64,000 bases of DNA. Source: Candidatus Melainabacteria bacterium 17Bon1m. Its GTDB lineage: Bacteria > Cyanobacteriota > Vampirovibrionia > Obscuribacterales > Obscuribacteraceae. Shown here in pieces: positions 4,919 through 53,834 of this stretch. The notes beneath the pieces are model-generated. The model did no database searches and was not told the DNA's origin. It saw only the letters and a program-made list of their open reading frames with translations. The stretch is taken from the NCBI GenBank assembly GCA_032128875.1, contig JAVLKG010000001.1:448001-512000 (forward strand), read 5' to 3'. A program made the position numbers and the translations under genes. The stretch's first letter is position 1, and the number at the start of each line of letters is the position of its first letter.

Positions 4919-5680
4919 TCAGACTATGCCGCGCCGCAGTGCATGTACCGCTGCTTGGGTTCTGTCGTCTACAGACAGCTTATTGAGAATGTTTCTGACG
5001 TGCGTTTTTGTTGTAGGCAGCGAAATAAAGAGCTTGTCTGAAATTTGCTGGTTGGACAGACCTTCGACAATCAACCCCAGCACTTCGAGCTCTCTTGTCG
5101 AAAGCGGTTCTACATACGGTCTGTCCGGTACATGACCTTCGTCCGGAGAATCTTTCTTTCCTGCATGGGCCGCCGGCTCTGCATCTTGGTTTTCTTCCCC
5201 GGTCGCTGCTTGCTCTTGGGAGGTATGTGACTGTTGCGAATACAACTTCAGAACTTTGCTGGCAATGGCGGTATCCAGCCAGGCATCGCCTGCCTTTACT
5301 GTGCGTATAGCCATGTAAAGACGCGAATCTTCGACGTCTTTCAAGCAATAACCGGATGCACCGGCAGTGAAAGAAGCCATAACATCCTGGTCATTATCAT
5401 GTTGCGTAAGCATGATGATTTTGGCGTTACTTCCGCTTTCCATAATCTTCTTCGACGCTTGAATGCCGTCCATTATCGGCATGCCTACATCCATCAAGAT
5501 TACGTCTGGTTTGAGCAAGGCAGCTTCTCGAACCGCTTCTTCTCCATTGGATGCCTCCCCGACAACAATTAAATCGCTTTCACGCTTCAAGACTGTTTTA
5601 ATACCAACCCGCGTCAGGGCGTGGTCTTCAACCAATAGAATGCGTATCGTCTTGCCTTCGTTTTTGCTTTCGTCCGTCAT
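4919..5680 (-). CDS. NarL/LuxR-family response regulator (RR1)
   Basis: REC domain (LVEDH, LMDVGMP, MLT, GYCLKD), long polar linker, LuxR HTH (LSTRELEVL...TKTHVRNILNKL...DDRTQAAV). Confidence 0.95.
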   Translation of the reverse strand: MTDESKNEGKTIRILLVEDHALTRVGIKTVLKRESDLIVVGEASNGEEAVREAALLKPDVILMDVGMPIMDGIQASKKIMESGSNAKIIMLTQHDNDQDVMASFTAGASGYCLKDVEDSRLYMAIRTVKAGDAWLDTAIASKVLKLYSQQSHTSQEQAATGEENQDAEPAAHAGKKDSPDEGHVPDRPYVEPLSTRELEVLGLIVEGLSNQQISDKLFISLPTTKTHVRNILNKLSVDDRTQAAVHALRRGIV

Positions 5681-5783
5681 ATTTTAATTTCCAAGCCGGG
5701 ACGTAATTATATATACTCCCAAATCGAAGCAGTAGTCTGCTTGACGACTGGCGTGTGACCGAATAAATACTGTGGGCTTGACA

Positions 5784-7388
5784 ATGAATGTGACTTCTCC
5801 ATTTTCGGAGCTGAGTGAATCTGAGATCAAACAGCGCCAGCGTTGGCTTGAATTCGAGTCGATTTCTGAAGCGGAAATAGCTGCTATTAACGCGCTTCTC
5901 GAAAAACATGCAGATGAGCTCATGGACAGCATGTACGAACACTTTTTGAGCTTCGAGGAAACGCGCAGTTTCTTCCCTACCGAGCAGATAATGCAGAGAG
6001 CCAAAGGCGCTCAAAAGCAGTATTTCTTGCGACTCGGTCGGGGCGTCTATGACACTGATTATGTGAGAGACAGACTCAGAGTAGGATTGACTCACCACCG
6101 AATTGAGCTCGATCCAAAATGGTACATAGGAGCTTACAACAGAGCTGCATCATGGCTTATGCCGAGACTCTTTGCCGAAAACGATTTAAGCGAATCGGCT
6201 AAAGTCGACCTGGCGAGGTCACTTCTAAAACTCATTTTTTTCGACATGGGGCTGGCCATTGAAAGTTATATCGGGTCGAAAGAATTGGCTCTCCTCGAGC
6301 ATCGAGATGCAATTAGAGAGTTAGAGACGGAAAAGAGAGTCACAAAGAGCATTCTCGAAAGTGCTCCTATCGGCATTGTAAGTTTAGATCTCGATTACAG
6401 ATGTCTTGAGTGCAATGAAGAGTTTGCTCAGCTTGTTTCCTGTGATTCCACTTCTGACGTTATTGGAAAATTGCTCTTTGATCTGGCCCCAAAGCTTCCT
6501 CAGGAGCCTTTCAAACACGTAATCGAAACAGGTCAACCAAGCCAGTTCTCGGCCAATGCTCTTAATTTTGCAAAGAACAATCCCACTGAGGTTACTTACT
6601 GGGATTGGGCGGCCTGGCCGGTAAAAAACAAAGGTGTATACGGCATTGTTGCCATGTTCTCGAATGCAACCGATAGAGTTCAGTTGCAACAACAAAGAGA
6701 AGATTTTGTTGCCACTCTTACTCATGACCTAAAAACCCCTGTTTCTGCAACCAATCGTGCGGTCAAGCTCATTCTTGCCGGGGATTTTGGCGAAGTTTCT
6801 GCCGAACTAAGGGAAATTCTCGAGACAGTTTTGCAAAGCAACACAACTCTGTATGCGCTCGTTCAAACTTTGCTTGATGTCTATCGCTTTGACAGCGGTG
6901 TCAAGGTTATGGATATGAAAGAGTGTAACCTGGCCGGGATAGTTACACAGCTTGTCACCGAAATCATGCCTTTGGCTCAAGAAAGGCGCATTCAGCTCAA
7001 GGCTGTTTTGCCATTTGATCTTGAGTGCATAAATTGCGACCAAGAAGAAGTCCGCCGTGTTGTGCAGAACTTGATTGACAATTCGCTTAAATTCACTCCG
7101 GCTGGCGGTACCGTCACCGTCACAATGTCTCAGAACGATGAACTCACCACCGTCTCGGTAAAAGACACTGGAAAAGGCATCCCGCCTGAGAACATGTCCA
7201 AGCTATTCCAAAGATTCTGGCAAGCCGGATCAAGCGGTCGATACTACGCTAGTACCGGACTCGGTCTTTACCTGGCAAGAAAAATTGTCGAAGGTCATGG
7301 CGGCAAAATTTCATGCGAGAGTAAGGTGGGAGAAGGCAGCACATTCTCGTTCGAGCTGCCTAATTCAGGCCAAACTCCAAAGAGCTAG
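5784..7388 (+). CDS. Globin-coupled sensor histidine kinase (globin-PAS-HisKA-HATPase), cytoplasmic
   Basis: HemAT/protoglobin-like N-terminus (MYEHF with B10 Tyr, VGLTHHRIELDPKWYIGAY with proximal His), PAS-like ILESAPIGIV, H-box THDLKTP, NLIDNSLKF, DTGKG, STGLGL; no transmembrane segment. GTG at 5772 is an alternative start. Confidence 0.9.
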   Translation: MNVTSPFSELSESEIKQRQRWLEFESISEAEIAAINALLEKHADELMDSMYEHFLSFEETRSFFPTEQIMQRAKGAQKQYFLRLGRGVYDTDYVRDRLRVGLTHHRIELDPKWYIGAYNRAASWLMPRLFAENDLSESAKVDLARSLLKLIFFDMGLAIESYIGSKELALLEHRDAIRELETEKRVTKSILESAPIGIVSLDLDYRCLECNEEFAQLVSCDSTSDVIGKLLFDLAPKLPQEPFKHVIETGQPSQFSANALNFAKNNPTEVTYWDWAAWPVKNKGVYGIVAMFSNATDRVQLQQQREDFVATLTHDLKTPVSATNRAVKLILAGDFGEVSAELREILETVLQSNTTLYALVQTLLDVYRFDSGVKVMDMKECNLAGIVTQLVTEIMPLAQERRIQLKAVLPFDLECINCDQEEVRRVVQNLIDNSLKFTPAGGTVTVTMSQNDELTTVSVKDTGKGIPPENMSKLFQRFWQAGSSGRYYASTGLGLYLARKIVEGHGGKISCESKVGEGSTFSFELPNSGQTPKS

Positions 7389-21738: not shown

Positions 21739-22104
21739 TTATCCTTCCTGTCCCTTCTTCAGCTTTCGACAATAGTCGAAAAGCTTCCGGACCGTCTCTT
21801 TATTAGACGCAACGCTTTGATAATAGGGCATGTGTCCAGGCGGATCTTCCAGGTACTTTTGAAACAATGCAATTGATCTGAGCATCTTGGAGCCGGCGAT
21901 TGGTTTTGTGGGATTGGCTGCATTGCCGCCGCCAACATGGCACGAACTGCAATACTGCTTGAACAAATCGCTGCCGGAGACTTCTTTGTTTTTCTCTTTG
22001 GAAAGTACCGGCGCAAAACTTGCGAATACAGCCAAGCAGATCATTGAAAACATGAGCGCTTCTTGCCAGTTTTTATTGTTTGTCTCCAGCTTAAACGTCA
22101 TCAT
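21739..22104 (-). CDS. Cytochrome c6-like exported class I cytochrome
   Basis: Signal peptide; GSDLFKQYCSSCHVGGGN...P.K; GHMPYY. Confidence 0.8.
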   Translation of the reverse strand: MMTFKLETNNKNWQEALMFSMICLAVFASFAPVLSKEKNKEVSGSDLFKQYCSSCHVGGGNAANPTKPIAGSKMLRSIALFQKYLEDPPGHMPYYQSVASNKETVRKLFDYCRKLKKGQEG

Positions 22105-22198
22105 CCAATTTCTCCCTGCAGGCATTCACATATCTGTTGCCCAAAATTGGCAATATGAAATCGCATCTTTCCTATTATGAGGCTTCATGCACGCTTAA

Positions 22199-22492
22199 CT
22201 AGCAGGTACCTGGAAAGTTGTCCTCTTCAATCTTTCGAGGTTCGGAAGTTTGCTCAACCTTCGGCAAAGACTCTTCTTCTTTCCATACCTTGGCCAATTC
22301 AGCCCAGGCACTCTCCAGACCGTCTTTCAATTCCTTGAAAGCAAATTGGCTATGACGCACTGCCATTTCTTCCTTTTTTACCAACTGAGTTTTTGCTTTT
22401 ACTGCTGCCTCAATTAGCTGATCAATTTTTGCTCCCACGTCCGCCAGCATTTGCTCGGCTGTTTCGTGCTTTTTTTCGTCTACTTTATTCAT
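22199..22492 (-). CDS. Small coiled-coil stress protein (Sll1863-like)
   Basis: GAKIDQL...FKELKDGLESAWAEL; similar to 33534-33866. Confidence 0.6.
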   Translation of the reverse strand: MNKVDEKKHETAEQMLADVGAKIDQLIEAAVKAKTQLVKKEEMAVRHSQFAFKELKDGLESAWAELAKVWKEEESLPKVEQTSEPRKIEEDNFPGTC

Positions 22493-22549
22493 GGTTGCTT
22501 CCCTCTTCAGTTCTTTCTGCAACATATATGAAATCGCTGGACTACGTTA

Positions 22550-22565
22550 TCGTCCAGACGGACTA
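22550..22565. promoter_or_regulatory. Putative 7-2-7 box in a divergent promoter
   Basis: TCGTCCA-GA-CGGACTA. Confidence 0.55.
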
Positions 22566-22679
22566 GCTTCTCTGGTTGCAGTTTTTTTGAGAGTGATACC
22601 TTTGATTGAAGCTTTGCAGTCGAATTGGTTTTAGATTGGGTGTGTACTGAAAGGGCACGGGGCAAAAGGATCGCAGAAT

Positions 22680-23036
22680 ATGAAACACTGGGGATTTGGT
22701 CGCAAAGGCGCCATAGAAATTACAATAGCAGTCGCTCTTGCTACTGCTGCATTCGCAATACCCTTTATAGTGGCTGCGTTCGGACCGGAGACTTTGTGGT
22801 TTATGACTCTTACCGGCCCGCCTGCGCTGACTGCTCTACTTTTGGGTATTTTTCTTTTCTTGCTGTACGCAGTCGGATTCTACCGATATGCTCATGATAA
22901 AGGCTATAGCGCCGCATTGAGTATCGTCCTCATAATGGCCGCTCTGCCTGGTTTGGTCGCTTTACTGTTGCTGCCTGATTTGACTCATCCTTTGGCTGAC
23001 GTTGTCTCCGACAGAAATAGAACATTCGCGCACTAG
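22680..23036 (+). CDS. Hypothetical 3-TM membrane protein
   Basis: Three hydrophobic helices; YAHDKGYS...LLLLPD; followed by a terminator. Confidence 0.7.
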   Translation: MKHWGFGRKGAIEITIAVALATAAFAIPFIVAAFGPETLWFMTLTGPPALTALLLGIFLFLLYAVGFYRYAHDKGYSAALSIVLIMAALPGLVALLLLPDLTHPLADVVSDRNRTFAH

Positions 23037-23059
23037 CACGTCAATAAATTCCTAAAACT

Positions 23060-23091
23060 GAGCACTACCGAATTAGCGGCGGTGCTCTTTT
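23060..23091 (+). terminator. Rho-independent terminator
   Basis: GAGCACTACCG...CGGCGGTGCTC followed by TTTT. Confidence 0.65.
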
Positions 23092-23150
23092 GTCATTGAT
23101 CCGATGAGCCTGAGATTACTAATCTGAGGTTTGGAAGTTTGACTATTGCA

Positions 23151-24587
23151 TTAGCGTCGCAAAGGAATTTCGATCCAAAATACCGACCCTTTGCCGGGCT
23201 CGCTTTCAACACCTATAAGTCCGCCGTGCGCCTCTACAATCAATTTTGCAATTGCAAGTCCTAAACCTGTCCCTCCCGCGGATTTGCCCTCGCTTGTTTG
23301 AAAAAACTTTTGAAATAATTTGGCGCTTGCTTGTTTGCTGATACCCGGGCCTGAATCGACTACTGCAATGCGCACGAATTTACTTTTGATGTCGCTGGTA
23401 ATCTCAATGGGTGACCCAGGAGTTGAAAATTTGATCGCGTTTGAGAGCAGATTTACAAGTACCTGTCTTACTCTAGATCTGTCTATAGGTAGTGAAATGT
23501 GCTCGCAACGATTTTCCAGTGCGATACCTTTTGCAAGAGCCAGATTTGACACTATTTCAATAGTCTCGCAAGCTAATGCATTGAGATCCGCTGATTCGAT
23601 ATTCAGGCTCAAGTTGCCCACGTCTAGACTTTCAAGCAGGAGCATGTCGTCTATTAGAGAAAGGCAAGTCGAAACGCTCGCATTCAGCCGTTGCAAATAC
23701 TTTCCTCCTTGGCTTTTCGACAACGCTTCTTCTTTGTCAAGTATGCTTGAGGCATTTGTGCAGCGGGTTAGCGACGTCTGCAGATGATGAGCAACAGCAG
23801 TCATATAGATTCGCCTGAACTCTTCTCCCTCGGATAGTTTTTTCTGAGCATCAGAGAGTTCGCTTTCTAATTGTGTTAGCTCGTCTTTGGATGATTCACT
23901 GTAGGAGATTCTTTCTTGAGTAGTCAACGCGTGTGCTTTGCGTGAAACTTCGGAGATTCGCTTAAATACAGCGTTTTTGAAAAACAGCGCGAGAGCCAGA
24001 GCAATCGCTAAATTGAGAATCAATCCTGTTAAGACAATGAATTTTGTTCTGGATAAATCTTCCTTTTGAGTATTGAGAGTTTGACCGAAATTTCGATCGC
24101 TTGCATCTAGCATTGATAAAACGCTGTGCGCGTCTTTCATAATGTCTAGAAATCTATCGGGCAGATTTATCGATACGATATCTGCCTGGCAAAGACCTGG
24201 CTTATCGACTAGAACCCGCAAGGTTTCTCGAACTTGCGACATTGAATTGCGTACCTTCTGAATCGTGGACTTGGTACTACTTCTTTCTTCTGTTCGTTGG
24301 TCAATCTGATTTAACGTGTCTATGAGCTCAAGGGACTCGCCCTCGACACGCTTTCTGATTGATTCATTGCCTGAGCTTTTTACAAAGTTGAATAAGGAAG
24401 TTGTGCATTTGTTGAAAAGTTCAACACTGCGGCTCATCAAGAAAATGATCTCTGCCCTTTTCTCGCTTTCATCAAGTAAAGCAGTCGATCTGTTCAGAGA
24501 ATCCCAATACATGCCAATCCAGATTACATTGACAGTGAGCGGAACGAAAATCATTAGCAGCCCTTTTTGAAAAATCGACAAAGACAT
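23151..24587 (-). CDS. Membrane sensor histidine kinase with intact ATPase domain and degenerate H-box
   Basis: 2 TM, HAMP-like segment, H-box AHHLQTSL, NLLSNAIKF, DSGPGI, LFQKF, GGTGLGL. Confidence 0.9.
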   Translation of the reverse strand: MSLSIFQKGLLMIFVPLTVNVIWIGMYWDSLNRSTALLDESEKRAEIIFLMSRSVELFNKCTTSLFNFVKSSGNESIRKRVEGESLELIDTLNQIDQRTEERSSTKSTIQKVRNSMSQVRETLRVLVDKPGLCQADIVSINLPDRFLDIMKDAHSVLSMLDASDRNFGQTLNTQKEDLSRTKFIVLTGLILNLAIALALALFFKNAVFKRISEVSRKAHALTTQERISYSESSKDELTQLESELSDAQKKLSEGEEFRRIYMTAVAHHLQTSLTRCTNASSILDKEEALSKSQGGKYLQRLNASVSTCLSLIDDMLLLESLDVGNLSLNIESADLNALACETIEIVSNLALAKGIALENRCEHISLPIDRSRVRQVLVNLLSNAIKFSTPGSPIEITSDIKSKFVRIAVVDSGPGISKQASAKLFQKFFQTSEGKSAGGTGLGLAIAKLIVEAHGGLIGVESEPGKGSVFWIEIPLRR

Positions 24588-26077
24588 CAGGCTCGTTTCT
24601 CCGCTAATGCTTCGGTACTTGTGGCTTGAGACAACGGCAACTCCAAAATAATTGAATTGCCATCGCCAAGGCGCTTGTAACTAATCGATCCGTGATGCCT
24701 CTGCAAAATTGGGACTGCTATAGCTAGACCTAGTGTGTGGACTTTGCAGCCGCCGGCTATTTGTGCTTGATGCAGTTTGTCGAAAAGTTTTGACGCTTCT
24801 TCGTCTCCTAGAGGCACTGCTTGGTCTGACACTTCCAGTTGATAACAATCATTCGACGCAGCTCCATTCACTATGATCCTGCTACCTTCTGGCGCCCTTG
24901 AAGCTGAAATGCGAAGTATTCTTTCCAGCACCCGAGAAATTTGCTCTCGGTCGATCTTTAGCGGCGCATCTTCGGTTCGGTTCACCACATGGAAACAACC
25001 AAGATATGATGCTTGCCCTAAAGTATGAGATACCAGATCTTCGCTATTGCAATCCTTCAAATCGAGCTTCACTTCACTATTTTCAAAGCTTTCCATAAGA
25101 AGCAGGTCATTAACTAAAGAGAGGCAATTTTGAAGAGCCTGACTGGCCTCTTCCAGGTTTTGTGATCCGCTTTCGCTTAGTGAGTCAGACATGAATTTGC
25201 TCAATGTTGCGAGTGATATATCGGCAGCCATGAGCGGGCTGCGAACATCGTGAGCCATCATTTGCATGAGCGAGCGACGATAATCCGCTATGTCCGCGAG
25301 TTTCCAACTGACTTTAGCCAATTCAACGCTGATTTCCCGCAACTCGTCGCTGCCTGTAATGACTTCATTTAAGGGTTCATTTAGGGTCAATTTTTTTGCC
25401 ATGTCGGATAAGGCATTTATTCTGCCCATCATGTTTTTGTGAAATTCTCGGTACAAAAACAGCGCTAGAAGGACGTTTGCAACGAGTCCGACCCAGATAA
25501 TCTGAGAGATTAGCGTTATTTCCCGTCTTTGGGACTGGAGCGACTGCAAATAGTTATCTCTGATTGCGGCTTGTTCGTCGTGTAAAAGACGGCTCTCTTT
25601 TCCGCCAATTTTTACCCATTCGTTAATGCGCCTCATCTTTATGAATATGTTGGCGAAGCTCATGCTTGGGTCTTCGGCCTTGATGAAGATTTCTTGTTGT
25701 CTTTTTAAGAGGCTTGATATCTCACGTTGAAAAGTCGCGTGGTTCTCGTCTCTAGGCATATTGTTTTCGACCTGAGCCAGGTCATCACGAACAATCGCCC
25801 AGCCTTGATTGATGAGCGGGCTGAAGAATCTATGCGACCCATTCATCATCGCATTACTTCCACCCAGAAGAATTTCCGTGACAGCATAAATAGCATGCGT
25901 GAGCTTGAGTACTACTGTCATTTGTTTCCGACTCGTTTCTATTTGAGATTCTGCCTGTGTTGCAGCTCTATTCAGAATCAAGAGGAGGAAGCAATTTATG
26001 AGCAGAGGCAGAAGCACCAGGGAGAGTCCTTGTAATAGGAGCCCTGATTTGAAACGTGGTGTCTTTAAGATAGGCAC
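24587..26077 (-). CDS. Membrane sensor histidine kinase homolog with intact H-box and degenerate ATPase domain
   Basis: 2 TM, HAMP, AHDVRSPL; N-box reads RVLERILRISASRA, G1 reads DQAVP, G2 reads HTLGL. Confidence 0.85.
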   Translation of the reverse strand: MPILKTPRFKSGLLLQGLSLVLLPLLINCFLLLILNRAATQAESQIETSRKQMTVVLKLTHAIYAVTEILLGGSNAMMNGSHRFFSPLINQGWAIVRDDLAQVENNMPRDENHATFQREISSLLKRQQEIFIKAEDPSMSFANIFIKMRRINEWVKIGGKESRLLHDEQAAIRDNYLQSLQSQRREITLISQIIWVGLVANVLLALFLYREFHKNMMGRINALSDMAKKLTLNEPLNEVITGSDELREISVELAKVSWKLADIADYRRSLMQMMAHDVRSPLMAADISLATLSKFMSDSLSESGSQNLEEASQALQNCLSLVNDLLLMESFENSEVKLDLKDCNSEDLVSHTLGQASYLGCFHVVNRTEDAPLKIDREQISRVLERILRISASRAPEGSRIIVNGAASNDCYQLEVSDQAVPLGDEEASKLFDKLHQAQIAGGCKVHTLGLAIAVPILQRHHGSISYKRLGDGNSIILELPLSQATSTEALAEKRA

Positions 26078-26219
26078 TCGAGTTCTCGCTTACTTGCCTG
26101 CAAGCAAGTGATGCATACTCATTTATTTTGTCAGGTTAAAGACGAAATTGGCAAATTCGATGCTTGGATTGGTTCATGCAGCCTGGGTTCAGAACCTGGC
26201 TAGATTTTGCGCTGTTCTC

Positions 26220-26235
26220 TCATCCTTGCGTACGA
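26220..26235. promoter_or_regulatory. Putative 7-2-7 box
   Basis: TCATCCT-TG-CGTACGA, between the kinase pair and the small membrane gene. Confidence 0.5.
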
Positions 26236-26306
26236 TATAGGCACTTGCATACCTTGTTATCATTCTTCTGCCTTGGAACTCCGAAATTCGCAAAGGCAGG
26301 TGTGTC

Positions 26307-26522
26307 ATGGAATTCATCGAGCTGAAAAAAGATATTTATCTGGCCCTCATAGTTTTGGGTCTTATTCTCCTTTTCATCGGAATACGAATGGCTCATAACG
26401 CATTCGGTGTCGATCTGGCCGGAACAATCCTTTTCTTGGTCGTTACCATTCAAGGAAGCGTTTGCTTCGGATTCGGTGCATTTACGTGGCTTCTAGAAGA
26501 AGACCCTGAGATTTGGAATTGA
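26307..26522 (+). CDS. Small 2-TM membrane protein
   Basis: AGGTG SD; two hydrophobic helices. Confidence 0.6.
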   Translation: MEFIELKKDIYLALIVLGLILLFIGIRMAHNAFGVDLAGTILFLVVTIQGSVCFGFGAFTWLLEEDPEIWN

Positions 26523-26819
26523 GATATTAGATTCGTAGCCGGATGTTCTTGCACTCGAGGTGACTGTTCATTTTGCTCGGATGGGTACACCCAAGATTAT
26601 TCGGTTTAATCATCCCAAAGAACGATACGCCTGCCTCTGAAAGCGCCGGAGATTAGCGTTTTTCAGTGCTTGTCAGTTGTTCCCGGAATTCGCTGTAAAT
26701 TAGTTTCACCCCTGCAAAACCTGCAACTGACCTCAATTATGGTAAACCTTTCACCATGCAGCGGTTTTGTGCAATCGCTCTGCGTGAAAGTCTTCGTCAT
26801 TACATGCTGGGGTAAAGTT

Positions 26820-29800
26820 ATGCGCTCTTTCGTTTTCGATAAGTGGTTGTCTCGTGGTAGCAAGCGGCGCAGGTCGAAAACAGATATTTCTATTGCACTC
26901 GGGCTGACTGTTGTTTCCCTAAGCATCGCCAGTTCGCAAGCTATGACCGGTAGTATTCCAACTGAATTTTGGAAGAAAACTGCTGCTCAATCGCTCGGTA
27001 GCTCGAATCGTTTTCTTACATTCATGAGCACAGATAAGCCACTCTACAAGAGTGGTGAGAGAGTCTTCGTTCGTGGCGTTATGCTTGACTCTTCAAGTCA
27101 CCAACCCAAAACAGGTTACGGCGGCAACGCATATATTCAAGTGCGGGGGCCGCGCGGGCAAGCCATTGCGAGCGGACAGGCTCAAATTCACGACAGCATT
27201 TGGTCTTATGCTTGGAACATCAGCCGCGATCAAGCCGGCGGTGAATATACGATTGTTGTCAGCTACCCATTTGGAGGGCACGCACCAGCGGAGCGCAAAG
27301 TGGACGTACGCTCATATCGCGCTCCACGGCTGAAGACGCAGCTGATTTTTGCACGCGATGGATACGGACCGGGTGATGTTGTCACTGCATCGCTATACGC
27401 GAAACGCGCCGAAGGCGGCATTCCTGCGAATGCAAAAGTGACGATTAAACCACTCGTAGACGGAGTTCCAATTGAGGCAGGCACAAGCAAAATTGACTCG
27501 AATGGCTTTTGTCGCATTTCATTTAGTCTGCCGCAACACATTGAGCGTGGTGACGGAACGCTTGCGCTTGTGATTGAAGACCAAGGTGTTGTTGAAACAA
27601 CATCCAAGACGATTCCAATTCTGTTGCAGAGCGTCGATTTGCAAATGTTTCCAGAGGGTGGTGACATTGTCGCTGGGTTTAAGAATCGTGTGTATGTGCA
27701 GGCGTTTTTGCCTAATGGCAAACCTGCCGATCTTCAGGCGCGTGTTATAGAAGAGCCGATTTCAGGCAAGAGGGTGGTCGCCAGTGTTTCGCATAAGCCC
27801 AATAAAAAGGGCGCAAAGAAAACGACTGTCGTCCACAATATCGTCAATTCTACGAATGCGCTTGCGTTCTTCCGCACAGAGCATGAAGGAATGGGCCGTT
27901 TTGAATTCACTCCTCAGGCAAACAAAAAATACTTTTTGCAAATTTCAAAACCGTCGGGAATTAAGAAGCTATACCCGCTACCCGCAGTGAAGTCAATCGG
28001 CGCGGTACTCCATTCAGAAAGTGATGTGGTCAAAAAGTTACAGCCGCTTCGCATCAAGGTTGGCAATAAATCTGCATGCCGAATTACCGTATCGAAGCAA
28101 GACAGAGAAATCGCATCGCGAATCATTAGTGCAACAGCCAGAGCAAACGGCACAAGTGGTGAGTTGGTGCCTATCGAGTTTCCTTTACCGCATGATGTTG
28201 ATGGTGTCTTGACTGTGACGGTATGGAATGAGTTCGACAAGCCTCTAGCTGAACGGTTGATTTTCCGTGAGCCCGAGAAGACTCTCAACATCACAGTGCG
28301 CGCAGATAAAAACACCTATGCGCCTGGCGAGAAAGCGCAAATTACTGTGCGCACTACAGATGAGAATGGCAGACCAATATCGGCGATGGTTGGAATGACC
28401 GTCACTGATGACAGTGTTCTGCAAATGATTGAAAAGAGAGACCAGCCACCACGTCTTCCTGTAATGGTTCTTCTCGAGCCTGAAGTGAAAGATCTGGCAG
28501 ATGCGCAGTTTTACCTCAATCCTGCTATTCCGAAATCCAGCCTAGCTACGGACCTTTTGTTAGGGACACAAGGATGGCGACGCTTCGCGTATCTAACTAC
28601 TGATGCGTTTATTCAGCAGTACGGAGATAAAGCTAGACGTGTTTTAGTAATGTCAGAGCAAAGAAACCAGGCACCGCAGCAGTTTCCCATCTCCAGTCCA
28701 CGTCGTAATCGCGCATCCTTTGGTTCTCCTCTTCGCACCAGTATCGGTGCCGGTACCGGCGCAGCCTTAGGAACTGCAATTGGTGCTATCTCTGGAGGGC
28801 GTACGAATGGCAGAGGAGCGTGGTCTGGTACCGCCATCGGTGCTGGAACTGGAGTGCCGTCTCAGCTGAAGCGGAAGTTCGATGCTGACAGTCAGCCGGG
28901 CGCACGTTTTAAATTTGCGCCCAACCAGTATGTGAATGAACCGCTCAGCCTTCCCGAAGAGGTGGGACGAGTTGAGGGTCCACGCGACGTAAATATGTTC
29001 CAGGTCGAACCCACAATTATTGATGAGCGACACTATTCTACTGGGCGTGCAGAGCGTCATCAGAAGACGAGTCCGACACTGCCTGAAGGTGCACCAATTC
29101 CGGACGAAGGGCAGACCGGGCAGCTTGCGCAATTGAGTAGTATGGATAGGTATTCTTTCTACACCCCACCGCGCAGTACGGACACAATCAATTCGATGTT
29201 TGCGGTGCGTGTCTTCTCACACCAAGCTCGACCGAACAGAAGCAGTACTGATCGCAAGGACTTCAGCGAGACTCTCTTTTGGTCCCCCGGAACCAAGACC
29301 GATGCGCGAACTGGCGAAGCAACAATCAGTTTTGATCTTAGCGATAGCATTTCCACGTTTGAAGTTGCGGCCGATGGATTTTCCAGTGGTGGCTTAATTG
29401 GTGCGAAGAAGCTTGAGATCAAATCTCTGAGACCTTTCTATGCGGAAGCGAAAATTCCGCTTGAGGTCACATCTGGCGACCAAATCATGTTGCCGCTCAA
29501 TTTGGTAAACGGTACTAATAGTGTTCTCACCGCAGTAGGTTTGAAAGTCGATCTACCTCAAGCGTTTAAATTGCTTGCTCCTCTCAAACTGCCGCAGCAG
29601 TTGAGTGGTGGCGAGAGAGCAAGAGTGTTACAGCCCATTCAAGTCGGGGCAGCAGACAAGGTATCGCATCTCAGAATTGAAGCAAAGGCCGGCAACAACG
29701 TCGACATTGTCGAAAGAGAAATCGAAGTTAGACCGGTAGGCTTCCCTGTAGAGAAGGCGTTTGCTGGAGTTTTAGAACCCGGCAAATCCGCCAAGATTAG

Positions 29801-31331
29801 TGTGAATATCGAGGAAAGTATGGTACCGGCAAGCTTGGGCACAAAGGCGGAAATTTATCCAACGCCGCTTGCAAATCTCACAAGCGCGCTAGAGCGTTTG
29901 ATTCAGGACCCTTATGGCTGTTTTGAGCAGACTTCATCAACAAGCTATCCGCTGACGATGGCTCAGCAATACTTCAAGTCTCATCCGGATGTTGATCCTA
30001 AGTTGATTTCGACCTCTCGCGAGAAACTTGAGGACGGTTATAAGAAGTTGGTTTCGTTCTGGTGCCCGGATCGTGGATACGAGTGGTTTGGACACAACCC
30101 AGGGCATGAGCCCCTTACAGCTTACGGATTAATGCATTTTGCTGACATGAGAAAGGTCGCCAAAATCGACGAGGTGATGTTTACAACCACACGTGCTTGG
30201 CTGATGAAGCAGAAAGATGGCAAGGGCGGCTTTACACGCAAGGCTCAAAGTATTCATACCTGGACTGCCGACAAGGACTGCTCTAACGCGTATATCGTCT
30301 GGTCTCTACTGGAAACAGGGGAGCAGGCTTCTAATCTTAAATCTGAGTTGGATTCATTAAGAAGCGCAGCGACTGCCAGTCAAGACAGCTATGTTGTTGC
30401 ACTAGCAGCTAACGCGTTCGATTTGGCAGGAGATAAGCAATTTTCGAAGTCATTGATGAAGCGGCTTGCATCTCTGCAGAAGAGTGATGGCAGTGTCGAC
30501 AAGGTGAAGAATTCAGTTGTCGGTAGTTCTGGTGAAGCTCTCGAATTGGAGGGTGTTGCTCTGGCAACTCTTGCGTGGTTACGCAACGACGAGTTTTCGG
30601 CCAATGTTCAAAAGAGCATGAAATTCCTTGCCGAGTCTTGCAAAGCTGGAAGATATGGTTCTACCCAATCTACAGTTTTATCTCTGCGAGCAATTCTTGC
30701 TTACGACAAGAAGAATGCTCACCCAAAGGCACCCGGAAAGATTCACGTCTTTGCCGATGGAAAGCCGGTTGCAGATGTAGCTTTTGATGAGAAAGCAAAG
30801 GAATCCATCAAGCTGCCAGATTTGACCGAAATACTCTCTCCTGGCGAGCATGAAATTGAGTTGAAAATGGAAGGCGGTTCTGCGATGCCATATGCAGTGG
30901 CAGCAAATTACAATCGTTTGACGCCTGAAAGCAGTAAAGACTGTAAGCTTGATCTCAGTGTCAATCTCTCGCAGCACCAACTGATTGAAGGTTCTTCGGC
31001 GGAAGTCATTGCAACGGTCACCAACAAGGTTGATGCTGTCGTTCCAAATCCTGTAGCAATTATCGGTTTGCCAGGAGGATTTGAGCCGCGACATACGCAA
31101 CTCAAAGAACTTGTTAAAGGACGCAAAATTGATGCCTACGAAGTGCGTGGGCGCGAGGTCGTGCTCTACTGGCGCGGACTAGATAAGAACGAAAAGATCT
31201 CGGTACCTATCAGTGTAATTGCTTCTGTTCCGGGTAAGTTCACTGGACCAGCAAGTCGTTCATATCTGTATTACACAGATGAGCATAAGAAGTGGACGGA
31301 TGGATTGACGGTCGAGATTGCAGCGAGGTAA
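26820..31331 (+). CDS. Alpha-2-macroglobulin family thioester protein
   Basis: Signal peptide, STDKPLYKSGE (MG domain), FPEGG, DLLLGTQGWRRF, RKDFSETLFW, thioester motif PYGCFEQ (CFEQ at 29919-29930), YGSTQST, PASRSYLYY. Confidence 0.92.
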   Translation: MRSFVFDKWLSRGSKRRRSKTDISIALGLTVVSLSIASSQAMTGSIPTEFWKKTAAQSLGSSNRFLTFMSTDKPLYKSGERVFVRGVMLDSSSHQPKTGYGGNAYIQVRGPRGQAIASGQAQIHDSIWSYAWNISRDQAGGEYTIVVSYPFGGHAPAERKVDVRSYRAPRLKTQLIFARDGYGPGDVVTASLYAKRAEGGIPANAKVTIKPLVDGVPIEAGTSKIDSNGFCRISFSLPQHIERGDGTLALVIEDQGVVETTSKTIPILLQSVDLQMFPEGGDIVAGFKNRVYVQAFLPNGKPADLQARVIEEPISGKRVVASVSHKPNKKGAKKTTVVHNIVNSTNALAFFRTEHEGMGRFEFTPQANKKYFLQISKPSGIKKLYPLPAVKSIGAVLHSESDVVKKLQPLRIKVGNKSACRITVSKQDREIASRIISATARANGTSGELVPIEFPLPHDVDGVLTVTVWNEFDKPLAERLIFREPEKTLNITVRADKNTYAPGEKAQITVRTTDENGRPISAMVGMTVTDDSVLQMIEKRDQPPRLPVMVLLEPEVKDLADAQFYLNPAIPKSSLATDLLLGTQGWRRFAYLTTDAFIQQYGDKARRVLVMSEQRNQAPQQFPISSPRRNRASFGSPLRTSIGAGTGAALGTAIGAISGGRTNGRGAWSGTAIGAGTGVPSQLKRKFDADSQPGARFKFAPNQYVNEPLSLPEEVGRVEGPRDVNMFQVEPTIIDERHYSTGRAERHQKTSPTLPEGAPIPDEGQTGQLAQLSSMDRYSFYTPPRSTDTINSMFAVRVFSHQARPNRSSTDRKDFSETLFWSPGTKTDARTGEATISFDLSDSISTFEVAADGFSSGGLIGAKKLEIKSLRPFYAEAKIPLEVTSGDQIMLPLNLVNGTNSVLTAVGLKVDLPQAFKLLAPLKLPQQLSGGERARVLQPIQVGAADKVSHLRIEAKAGNNVDIVEREIEVRPVGFPVEKAFAGVLEPGKSAKISVNIEESMVPASLGTKAEIYPTPLANLTSALERLIQDPYGCFEQTSSTSYPLTMAQQYFKSHPDVDPKLISTSREKLEDGYKKLVSFWCPDRGYEWFGHNPGHEPLTAYGLMHFADMRKVAKIDEVMFTTTRAWLMKQKDGKGGFTRKAQSIHTWTADKDCSNAYIVWSLLETGEQASNLKSELDSLRSAATASQDSYVVALAANAFDLAGDKQFSKSLMKRLASLQKSDGSVDKVKNSVVGSSGEALELEGVALATLAWLRNDEFSANVQKSMKFLAESCKAGRYGSTQSTVLSLRAILAYDKKNAHPKAPGKIHVFADGKPVADVAFDEKAKESIKLPDLTEILSPGEHEIELKMEGGSAMPYAVAANYNRLTPESSKDCKLDLSVNLSQHQLIEGSSAEVIATVTNKVDAVVPNPVAIIGLPGGFEPRHTQLKELVKGRKIDAYEVRGREVVLYWRGLDKNEKISVPISVIASVPGKFTGPASRSYLYYTDEHKKWTDGLTVEIAAR

Positions 31332-53078: not shown

Positions 53079-53834
53079 ATGGGTAACGAAGAACAGGACA
53101 CCAAAACACGCATTCGAATTTTGCTTGTAGAAGATCACGCCCTGACCAGGGTGGGCATCAAAACAGTGCTCAAGCGAGAGGCTGATTTTGAAGTCGTTGG
53201 TGATGCATCAAATGGCGAAGAAGCGATTGCACAAGCTGAAGCGCTTAAGCCTGACATTATTTTGATGGATGTTGGCATGCCTGTAATGGACGGAATTCAG
53301 GCGTCTAAGAAGATTGTTGACAGCGGATCTGCCGCCAAAATAATCATGCTTACGCAGCATGACAACGAGCAGGACATTCTTGCCTCACTGTCTGCCGGTG
53401 CATCCGGTTATTGCCTTAAGGATGTCGAGGCTTCGAGATTGTACATGGCAATCCGGACAGTCAATGCCGGTGATGCCTGGCTTGATTCAGCCATAGCCGG
53501 TAAGGTTCTAAAACTCTATAACACGCAAAATCCTGCTCCCGCGAGCACCCAGCCTCAAGAGCCGGCTTCGCCAAAAGAACACCACTCGGTAGCCGCTGGC
53601 AGCCCTAGTCAAAAGGCATATGACCCAGATCGCCCCTATGCAGAGCCCCTCTCGCCTCGAGAATTAGAGGTTCTTGGGCTTATCGTGGAAGGGCTATCCA
53701 ATCAGCAAATCTCAGATCGGCTAATTATTTCGTTGCCAACCACTAAAACGCATGTTCGCAATATTCTCAATAAGTTAGCAGTTGATGATCGAACTCAAGC
53801 GGCTGTGCATGCTATGCGGCGCGGTATCGTCTAG
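53079..53834 (+). CDS. NarL/LuxR-family response regulator (RR2, orphan paralog of RR1)
   Basis: Same REC and HTH motifs as 4919-5680; 5 differences in the last 63 aa. Confidence 0.95.
   Translation: MGNEEQDTKTRIRILLVEDHALTRVGIKTVLKREADFEVVGDASNGEEAIAQAEALKPDIILMDVGMPVMDGIQASKKIVDSGSAAKIIMLTQHDNEQDILASLSAGASGYCLKDVEASRLYMAIRTVNAGDAWLDSAIAGKVLKLYNTQNPAPASTQPQEPASPKEHHSVAAGSPSQKAYDPDRPYAEPLSPRELEVLGLIVEGLSNQQISDRLIISLPTTKTHVRNILNKLAVDDRTQAAVHAMRRGIV

Follow-up and report, generated by a model that had tools for sequence, protein, structure and literature searches.

Two overlapping membrane histidine kinase genes with reciprocal motif defects: candidate halves of one sensor kinase in an Obscuribacteraceae genome

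The standard teaching is that histidine kinases form homodimers and are insulated against heterodimerisation, and a locus in which two neighbouring kinases each appear to lack what the other retains raises the question of whether either of them works alone. Such a locus lies in the 64,000-nucleotide stretch analysed here (the window), which covers positions 448,001 to 512,000 of the forward strand of contig JAVLKG010000001.1 from Candidatus Melainabacteria bacterium 17Bon1m (assembly GCA_032128875.1). Two open reading frames (ORFs) on the minus strand, encoding an upstream protein, HK-A, and a downstream protein, HK-B, together fill positions 23151-26077. An earlier note, made from the letters of this DNA, had described them as membrane kinases of the same architecture with reciprocal defects and had read them as an interdependent pair. 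The comparative evidence gathered here supports that reading and extends it, by pointing to an acceptor His in HK-B that appears dispensable. Judging from these sequences, we lean towards an obligate hetero-complex in which the catalytic ATP-binding (CA) domain of HK-B would phosphorylate His276 of HK-A.

Both proteins share one layout, consisting of a transmembrane (TM) segment, a periplasmic domain of ~155 residues, a second TM segment, a HAMP-like linker, a dimerisation and histidine-phosphotransfer (DHp) domain and a CA domain, and they align over their full length with 23% identity (E 5e-30). The elements on which the earlier note relied were all found: hydropathy gave two hydrophobic segments per protein, spaced about 155-175 residues, and both Pfam domains passed their cut-offs (26.9 bits for HisKA and 26.4 for HATPase_c), HisKA scoring 32.8 bits in HK-A and 32.6 in HK-B, and HATPase_c 30.9 and 101.4 bits, respectively. 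The motifs were read from alignments to solved kinases and of HK-A against HK-B. The H-box of HK-A, MMAHDVRSPL, is canonical, whereas that of HK-B reads AVAHHLQTSL, with His in place of Asp/Glu at the position following the acceptor (+1), Gln in place of Arg and Ser in place of Pro. The ATP-binding boxes differ in the opposite sense, the N-box being VLERILRISASR in HK-A versus VLVNLLSNAIKF in HK-B, with both Asn residues of HK-A replaced, by R and I; G1 is SDQAVPL versus VDSGPGI, and G2 is KVHTLGLAIA versus GGTGLGLAIA. HK-B retains 7/7 of the CA key residues and HK-A only two. In autophosphorylation the acidic +1 residue acts as general base, and Mg-ATP is bound through the N-box Asn. Judged by its motifs, neither protein alone is a complete HisKA-class kinase; at this level the acceptor and the ATP-binding sites lie on separate, jointly encoded polypeptides, as in a split kinase.

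How unusual this pattern is could be gauged within the source genome (G000, an assembly of 7.55 Mb in 35 contigs), in which 133 kinase modules from 128 ORFs were scored with a profile of the DHp-CA core. Fully canonical modules, with the acceptor His and all seven CA key residues, numbered 104, and given this proportion the motif pattern of HK-A and HK-B is not due to chance. The +1 residue of these 104 is D in 67, E in 31, Q in five and H in one, the single H being that of HK-B. The five otherwise canonical kinases with Gln after the acceptor His (AAHQLRTPL type; C1:24508-25935, C4:479334-480809, C22:11310-12686, C22:26503-27939 and C22:28684-30123) belong to one subfamily that tolerates a non-acidic residue at this position.

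The earlier note had set conservation of the degeneration in orthologs as its test beforehand, and had asked whether the orthologs co-occur or are fused. A search of 41 genomes, 13 of them from the same genus, yielded HK-A orthologs in G011 (90% identity), G005 (59%), G002 (53%) and G006 (48%) within the genus and in G022 (29%), from another genus of the family. In all six genomes, the source included, the HK-B ortholog directly follows that of HK-A, through a TGATG junction in four, a 1-nt spacer (TGAtATG) in G005 and a 14-nt overlap in G022. A divergent alpha-2-macroglobulin-like gene flanks the pair in G000 and G011 and is not found there in G005, G002 or G022, the neighbour being a Ser/Thr kinase with LRRs in G005 and genes of no known family in G002. 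Since the flanking genes vary between species, the linkage of HK-A with HK-B is the only conserved one, and the non-conserved flanks offered no clue to function. The degeneration pattern withstood the test set by the earlier note. The HK-A H-box, MMAHDVRSPL, is invariant in the six species, as is the stretch RRS.MQMMAHDVRSPLMA, and neither N-box position is ever Asn; G1 and G2 of HK-A are degenerate. In HK-B the CA boxes are invariant across the same species, which have H, H, Q, L, Q and D at the acceptor (codons CAT, CAT, CAG, CTA, CAG and GAC), His being present only in G000 and G011.

The same asymmetry was observed in a wider set of 25 clusters of the HK-B family (P0002 and P0163-P0186), drawn from a search of 5.8 billion proteins. 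All 25 retain the seven CA key residues and none has D or E at +1, where H (5), R (14) or N (6) is found. The acceptor itself is His in nine clusters and K (7), N (3), L (2), Q (2), D (1) or S (1) in the other 16, and never Tyr. HK-B, taken as a family, thus cannot be a self-sufficient kinase, and His267 of the window protein occupies an unconstrained position. The eight clusters that follow the HK-B family in the list of matches are canonical kinases with MMAHDLRSPL, which indicates that the ancestral H-box survives in HK-A. These sequences would be best explained if HK-B lost the catalytic acid early and its His, by then useless, drifted.

Constraint along the two proteins was compared region by region over five species, leaving out the near-identical G011 row. 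DHp helix 1 showed 75% identity in HK-A (19/32 positions invariant) versus 44.7% in HK-B (7/32), while the CA domain showed 35% in HK-A (14/108) versus 69.1% in HK-B (54/108), so that the regional constraints of the two are mirror images. The periplasmic domains were 45.9% (HK-A) and 38.6% (HK-B) identical between species. Both genes are under purifying selection, with dN/dS values between G000 and G011 of 0.105 for HK-A and 0.059 for HK-B; the value for the CA-like part of HK-A, 0.21, denotes a relaxed but not a free sequence.

Further systems of this kind were found in the same genome. Seven modules in G000 carry the acceptor His with a CA domain that is dead or absent (at most 3/7 key residues; Table 1), and all seven adjoin, or are fused to, a module with an intact CA domain (7/7), the partner lacking the His in six. 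Conversely, there are seven His-less, CA-intact modules with an aligned H-box, six of which are these very partners, the seventh (C11:4455-5669) being a kinase-receiver hybrid. Motifs were checked by eye, including those of C5:98510-100315, where the profile alignment had shifted; four more rows scored as lacking His were left unclassified, as their H-box was unaligned. The second module of C6:260410-263106, which has the His and 4/7 CA residues and lies behind a canonical first module, is a borderline case. Four of the seven systems, the two on C1 and those on C18 and C12, are single ORFs of 901-1024 residues, each with four hydrophobic segments in the order TM, ~170 residues, TM, cytoplasmic module, repeated once. 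This order makes each of them two complete sensors fused head to tail, and they resemble the window pair in single-chain form. Their module states are kept in relatives, the C18 type in G003 and G008 and the C1:524835 type in G007. A search across a sample of 400 genomes of the phylum, at the strict cut-off of E<=1e-60 and with few members of the window's own family in the set, found the C18-type fusion nowhere outside G000.

Fusions are also frequent beyond these genomes. A profile of the six HK-A orthologs, run against 1.84 billion representatives at 50% identity, retrieved 1,691 proteins at E<=1e-30, and fusion classes were counted in the best 150 of them, a sample that is biased to this family because the HK-A profile was the query. 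Under a strict definition of reciprocity (a His-bearing module with at most 4/7 CA residues and another module without His and with at least 6/7; the first two modules were scored in three-module proteins), 74 of the best 150 are reciprocal two-module fusions, 36 with the His module first and 38 with the CA module first. Two-module proteins intact in both modules account for 28, and mixed or unclassified proteins of two or three modules for 15. The remaining 33 are single-module proteins, 24 of them canonical and nine resembling HK-A in that the His is kept and the CA domain retains at most 4/7 residues (P0003-P0008, P0010, P0013 and one more). Four TM segments were predicted in 59 of the 74 reciprocal fusions, and the +1 residue of the His-bearing, dead-CA module is D or E in every one of the 74. 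An organism name was attached to one of ten fused representatives, Candidatus Obscuribacterales.

The origin of the arrangement was approached through two trees. In a quick IQ-TREE analysis of 48 modules of the 500-residue family, the six HK-A orthologs form one clade (SH-aLRT support 99) and the six HK-B orthologs another (100), the two being sisters (99), which indicates a single tandem duplication of one kinase followed by reciprocal divergence. A second tree (39 rows, SH-aLRT support) dealt with a 610-residue subfamily, whose six tandem pairs split into an 'up' clade (100) and a 'down' clade (99), as expected from one ancestral pair that was copied as a pair. Both genes are intact in four of these six pairs. 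In the C3 pair the upstream gene lacks the His and the downstream gene the CA domain, while in the C5-96k pair it is the upstream gene that lacks the CA domain and the downstream gene the His. Forcing the two dead-CA genes together made the tree 57.6 log-likelihood units worse, and a single clade for them was rejected (p-AU 0.00136), for a group that was named after the tree had been inspected. Such reciprocal loss from intact pairs, in both polarities, is what would be expected if the paralogues already worked as a complex that needs no more than one His and one ATP site. G000 also holds runs of two to four same-strand kinase genes that nearly abut or overlap (C15:11769-19211, C11:180401-184041, C5:383916-387583 and C4:735701-738767); both partners are intact in them and fall in the conserved 'up' and 'down' clades, and these runs resemble a stage of this pairing that precedes degeneration. 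Whether all this amounts to a general route, by which Obscuribacterales-type bacteria repeatedly evolved asymmetric kinases with a single active site, through duplication, a fixed paralogue heterodimer, complementary loss in either polarity and often fusion into a four-TM protein with two sensor domains, the window pair being the unfused form, is a question on which we regard the case as evenly balanced.

For the window pair itself, the following scheme can be drawn. HK-A and HK-B would each be half of a single sensor kinase; their overlapping genes would yield them in equal amounts, and the two would assemble in the membrane as a hetero-complex, most simply as a DHp heterodimer in which each subunit contributes one hairpin to a four-helix bundle. 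Since HK-B alone would bind ATP and HK-A alone would offer a competent acceptor, His276, with Asp277 as the general base, phosphorylation would take place in trans, from the CA domain of HK-B to His276 of HK-A. The phosphoryl group would then be passed from phosphorylated HK-A to an OmpR-type response regulator encoded elsewhere in the genome, and the conserved DHp helix 1 of HK-A may serve as the docking and phosphotransfer surface and probably also as the surface for phosphatase activity. As the periplasmic domains of the two subunits have diverged, the output would depend on two different sensor domains, and it is plausible that the pair integrates two signals; the fusions would be single-chain versions of the same four-helix bundle. 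The sequences themselves show how the genes are arranged, which motifs are kept or lost and how well these states are conserved, that HK-A and HK-B are sisters that strictly co-occur, and that analogous modules are fused; natural fusions of this kind speak indirectly for a physical complex. That the two proteins associate, which way the phosphoryl group moves, and what regulator and signals are involved is what we infer.

Several observations weigh against this scheme, besides the naming of the tested group after inspection of the tree. Orthologs were found in only five of the 13 genomes of the genus, G000 included, the other eight (completeness 64-94%) giving matches at the level of paralogues, although many genomes of the genus are just 64-90% complete. 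The existence of five canonical kinases with Gln at +1 makes the argument from this position weak by itself, as a non-acidic residue there is no proof of inactivity. The scheme does not account for the CA-like domain that HK-A keeps, folded and under selection (dN/dS 0.21). No cognate regulator was identifiable, and several G000 proteins 37-43% identical to the regulator that accompanies the pair in G022 sit beside other kinases. The acceptor of HK-B is still His in this genome and in other clusters of its family, which makes residual self-phosphorylation possible there, and the handedness of the DHp loop is not readable from sequence: should it dictate a cis reaction, the CA domain of HK-B would reach its own helix.

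The question of the interface defines the alternative that survives best, although we hold it to be rather unlikely, namely that the kinase is split but that HK-A and HK-B each form homodimers, which lie side by side or associate through TM or periplasmic parts, so that phosphorylation occurs between dimers, as in the action of CheA4 on CheA3. The comparative evidence does give functional interdependence and not an interface, and homodimerisation is the default for histidine kinases (PMC9491836). Nevertheless, HK-A and HK-B are sisters from a duplicated homodimeric ancestor, so that a heterodimer of paralogues is the simplest descendant, and the four-TM fusions hold one His-bearing and one His-less hairpin per chain, which matches a single four-helix bundle.

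The residual His267 brings up a second possibility, which we find improbable: that HK-B is an ordinary autokinase and HK-A a kinase-dead phosphatase or modulator of the same regulator. Under this explanation the CA domain would not be expected to stay perfect in the 16 of 25 clusters that have lost the His, DHp helix 1 of HK-B, on which a regulator would dock, would not be so much less conserved than that of HK-A, and the invariant His and Asp of HK-A would remain unexplained. It does account for the His at the acceptor position in G000, G011 and nine of the 25 clusters, and kinases of the Gln-+1 type do tolerate a non-acidic residue; moreover, the HDxxS sequence of HK-A comes close to the HE/DxxT/N phosphatase motif (PMC3591291). 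Finally, that the pair does not signal by phosphorylation at all, its members being pseudokinases or scaffolds, with HK-B as an ATP-binding switch, or a decaying duplicate, is highly improbable, for although repurposed pseudokinases exist and DivL is the best solved relative of HK-B (E 2.3e-30), both genes are under purifying selection, the acceptor motif of HK-A and the Mg/ATP residues of HK-B are invariant, which is the signature of retained catalysis, and Tyr is absent from the acceptor position of the HK-B family.

The idea of a kinase divided between two chains is already established. Yang and Inouye reportedly found in 1991 that His and ATP-site mutants of EnvZ complement each other in vitro, demonstrating trans-autophosphorylation. 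The scheme proposed for HK-A and HK-B likewise joins a His-less and an ATP-less subunit through one trans reaction, but the EnvZ subunits were engineered mutants of one protein, whereas the arrangement described here appears naturally fixed, recurrent and conserved. The biochemistry of the three-protein HK1/HK2-TcrA system of Mycobacterium tuberculosis is said to have been worked out by Shrivastava et al. in 2007. There, adjacent genes divide the ATP-binding and His domains between two polypeptides that serve one regulator; in that system, which is listed in PMC9321153, one kinase is split into domain fragments, while HK-A and HK-B are two complete sensors with reciprocal loss of motifs.

A further parallel is provided by CheA3 and CheA4 of Rhodobacter sphaeroides, which also carry the acceptor and the ATP-binding kinase domain on two proteins; neither autophosphorylates alone and their mixture labels the His-bearing partner, which also handles the regulator (PMC3591291). 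In the same paper, 1,556 of 42,417 HisKA proteins were estimated to lack a HATPase domain. The Che proteins are soluble, of the CheA class, and lack whole domains; HK-A and HK-B are full-length TM sensors of the HisKA type with their own periplasmic domains, in which sister paralogues bear point degenerations and covalent fusions of the halves are common. In the case of RetS-GacS of Pseudomonas aeruginosa, two membrane kinases also interact directly and one modulates the phosphorylation of the other (PMC5992135 and PMC12189002); GacS is a complete autokinase inhibited by RetS, whereas HK-A and HK-B are both incomplete, overlapping in their genes and sisters as paralogues, and their interaction would be activating and obligate. 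A RetS-type inhibitory partner was rejected as a model, because HK-A has a dead CA domain and the HK-B family no competent acceptor, so that neither is the complete autokinase on which such a partner would act. DivL (PDB 4q20) resembles the HK-B family in being a HisKA/HATPase_c protein with a replaced acceptor His, but it has Tyr at this position and senses phosphorylated DivK, while the HK-B family has H, K, N, L, Q, D or S, keeps all ATP residues and always occurs with a His-bearing sister; HK-B as a DivL-type pseudokinase was likewise discarded, given the lack of Tyr and a match to 4q20 that spans the generic DHp-CA core only.

Few kinase heteromers are reported within the literature covered, and those described are mainly inhibitory (RetS-GacS) or reflect incidental interaction of paralogues (ChrS/HrrS; PMC9491836). 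Among 15,704 non-hybrid kinases, a census of 2010 counted only 2 that had two transmitter domains (PMC3018481), and the word 'heterodimer' is absent from a 2025 review on two-component complexity. No natural pair or fusion of complete TM sensors of the HisKA type with reciprocal defects was found in the CC-licensed PMC and bioRxiv literature, and an earlier description elsewhere is possible; within that coverage, reciprocal loss in complete membrane sensors is apparently new. If the general route outlined above is real, it would represent an undescribed and common class of architecture, that of natural two-input kinases, and a textbook case in which complementary degeneration locks in a heteromer. 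A naturally fixed pair whose halves each supply one half-reaction, together with its many fused versions, would provide a natural system for the study of trans-phosphorylation and of asymmetric, half-of-sites signalling, show how a single phosphorylation site can receive two periplasmic inputs, and offer a clean and repeated instance of complementary degeneration after duplication, in which those pairs and fusions that are still intact represent the intermediate stages. Annotation would be affected as well, as members of the HK-B family are now labelled 'histidine kinase' or 'hypothetical protein'.

At the level of the DNA, the TGATG overlap noted earlier at 24587 was read in the sequence (GCCTGATGTCT on the minus strand; in a longer context, GGAGAAACGAGCCTGATGTCT). 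The stop codon of HK-A (TGA, 24589-24587) and the start codon of HK-B (ATG, 24587-24585) have one base in common, the A at 24587, and GGAGA stands ~10 nt 5' of the ATG; from its sequence, this is a classic layout for translational coupling. The coordinates of all features are collected in Table 1.

Table 1. Features of the HK-A/HK-B locus (window coordinates) and the His-bearing modules with a dead or absent CA domain in G000 (contig coordinates)
Feature	Location	Strand	Remarks
HK-A gene	24587..26077	minus	496 aa, GTG start, stop TGA 24589-24587; P0001; putative His donor, CA catalytically degenerate by motif
HK-A TM1	25985..26041	minus	residues ~13-31, hydropathy
HK-A periplasmic domain	25508..25972	minus	residues ~36-190; all-helical in low-confidence model
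HK-A TM2	25445..25501	minus	residues ~193-211, hydropathy
HK-A HAMP-like linker	25292..25444	minus	residues ~212-262, GSDELREISVEL; read from sequence
HK-A H-box AHDVRSPL	25232..25255	minus	residues 275-282; acceptor His276, Asp277
HK-A degenerate CA-like domain	24629..24952	minus	residues 376-483; both N-box Asn lost, G1 DQAVP, G2 HTLGL
TGATG stop/start overlap, HK-A/HK-B	24585..24589	minus	sequence; same overlap in 4/6 species
HK-B gene	23151..24587	minus	478 aa, ATG start; P0002; putative ATPase donor, H-box degenerate
HK-B TM1	24507..24563	minus	residues ~9-27, hydropathy
HK-B periplasmic domain	24042..24506	minus	residues ~28-182; distant paralogue of that of HK-A
HK-B TM2	23985..24041	minus	residues ~183-201, hydropathy
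HK-B degenerate H-box AHHLQTSL	23769..23792	minus	residues 266-273; codons CAT CAT at acceptor (His267) and +1
HK-B intact CA domain	23160..23483	minus	residues 369-476; N, G1, F and G2 boxes
Weak sigma-70-like promoter match 5' of HK-A	26125..26154	minus	9/12 positions; number of sites not above shuffles
His-bearing dead-CA module	window HK-A
His-bearing dead-CA module	C3:112324-114306
His-bearing dead-CA module	C5:96648-98513
His-bearing dead-CA module	C1:32683-35754		first module
His-bearing dead-CA module	C1:524835-527537		first module
His-bearing dead-CA module	C18:14544-17549		first module
His-bearing dead-CA module	C12:35708-38722		second module

The sensor parts of the two proteins are about as diverged from each other as the whole proteins. 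For the periplasmic domain of HK-A, an AF2 model showed four long helices (mean pLDDT 59, pTM 0.47), and the Atlas leads, 4HB_MCP, CHASE3 and TarH (0.93-0.95, with 137-152 shared features), were weak; on the basis of this model a four-helix-bundle sensor is possible. The linker gave no Pfam HAMP match in either protein, and is presumably HAMP-like in view of the usual DE(L/I)xxL connector signature.

As the earlier note had stated, no receiver domain adjoins the pair, the nearest among the matches listed being those at 5306-5641 and 53118-53453 of the window. Among the receiver matches listed, OmpR-type regulators lie beside four of the seven G000 systems and none near the window pair, the C3 pair or the C12 fusion. 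Only in G022 does an OmpR-type regulator stand directly 5' of the HK-A and HK-B orthologs (L015:694-1470 / L029:3218-3994; Response_reg 82.7 bits, Trans_reg_C 62.3 bits). No clear ortholog of it was found in G000, where the best matches are 37-43% identical; among its closest relatives there are regulators that neighbour the C18 and C1:524835 fusions and the C5 pair, and the OmpR-type regulators most like it lie at C18:17578-18264, C1:550790-551503, C1:527414-528211 and C5:95877-96578.

Three runs labelled RNA-Seq (X2-X4), which hold the whole stretch examined (window 22000-27500), gave no evidence of transcription or co-transcription of the pair. The locus occurs in them as contigs of 35-38 kb with flat depth, identical to the genome, and the sample is that of a DNA run, a possible source; these contigs look like DNA or carry-over and not like transcripts.

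Divergent from HK-A, the window encodes at 26670-31331 (+) a 1553-residue alpha-2-macroglobulin-like protein with MG2, A2M, TED and receptor-binding domains. An ordinary divergent regulator/kinase pair is found at 4919-7388, with the receiver domain at 5306-5641 (-) and a canonical kinase ORF at 5772-7388 (+). The two-component inventory of G000 as a whole is very large for a genome of its size, with at least 128 ORFs matching the DHp-CA core and at least 150 receiver-domain matches.

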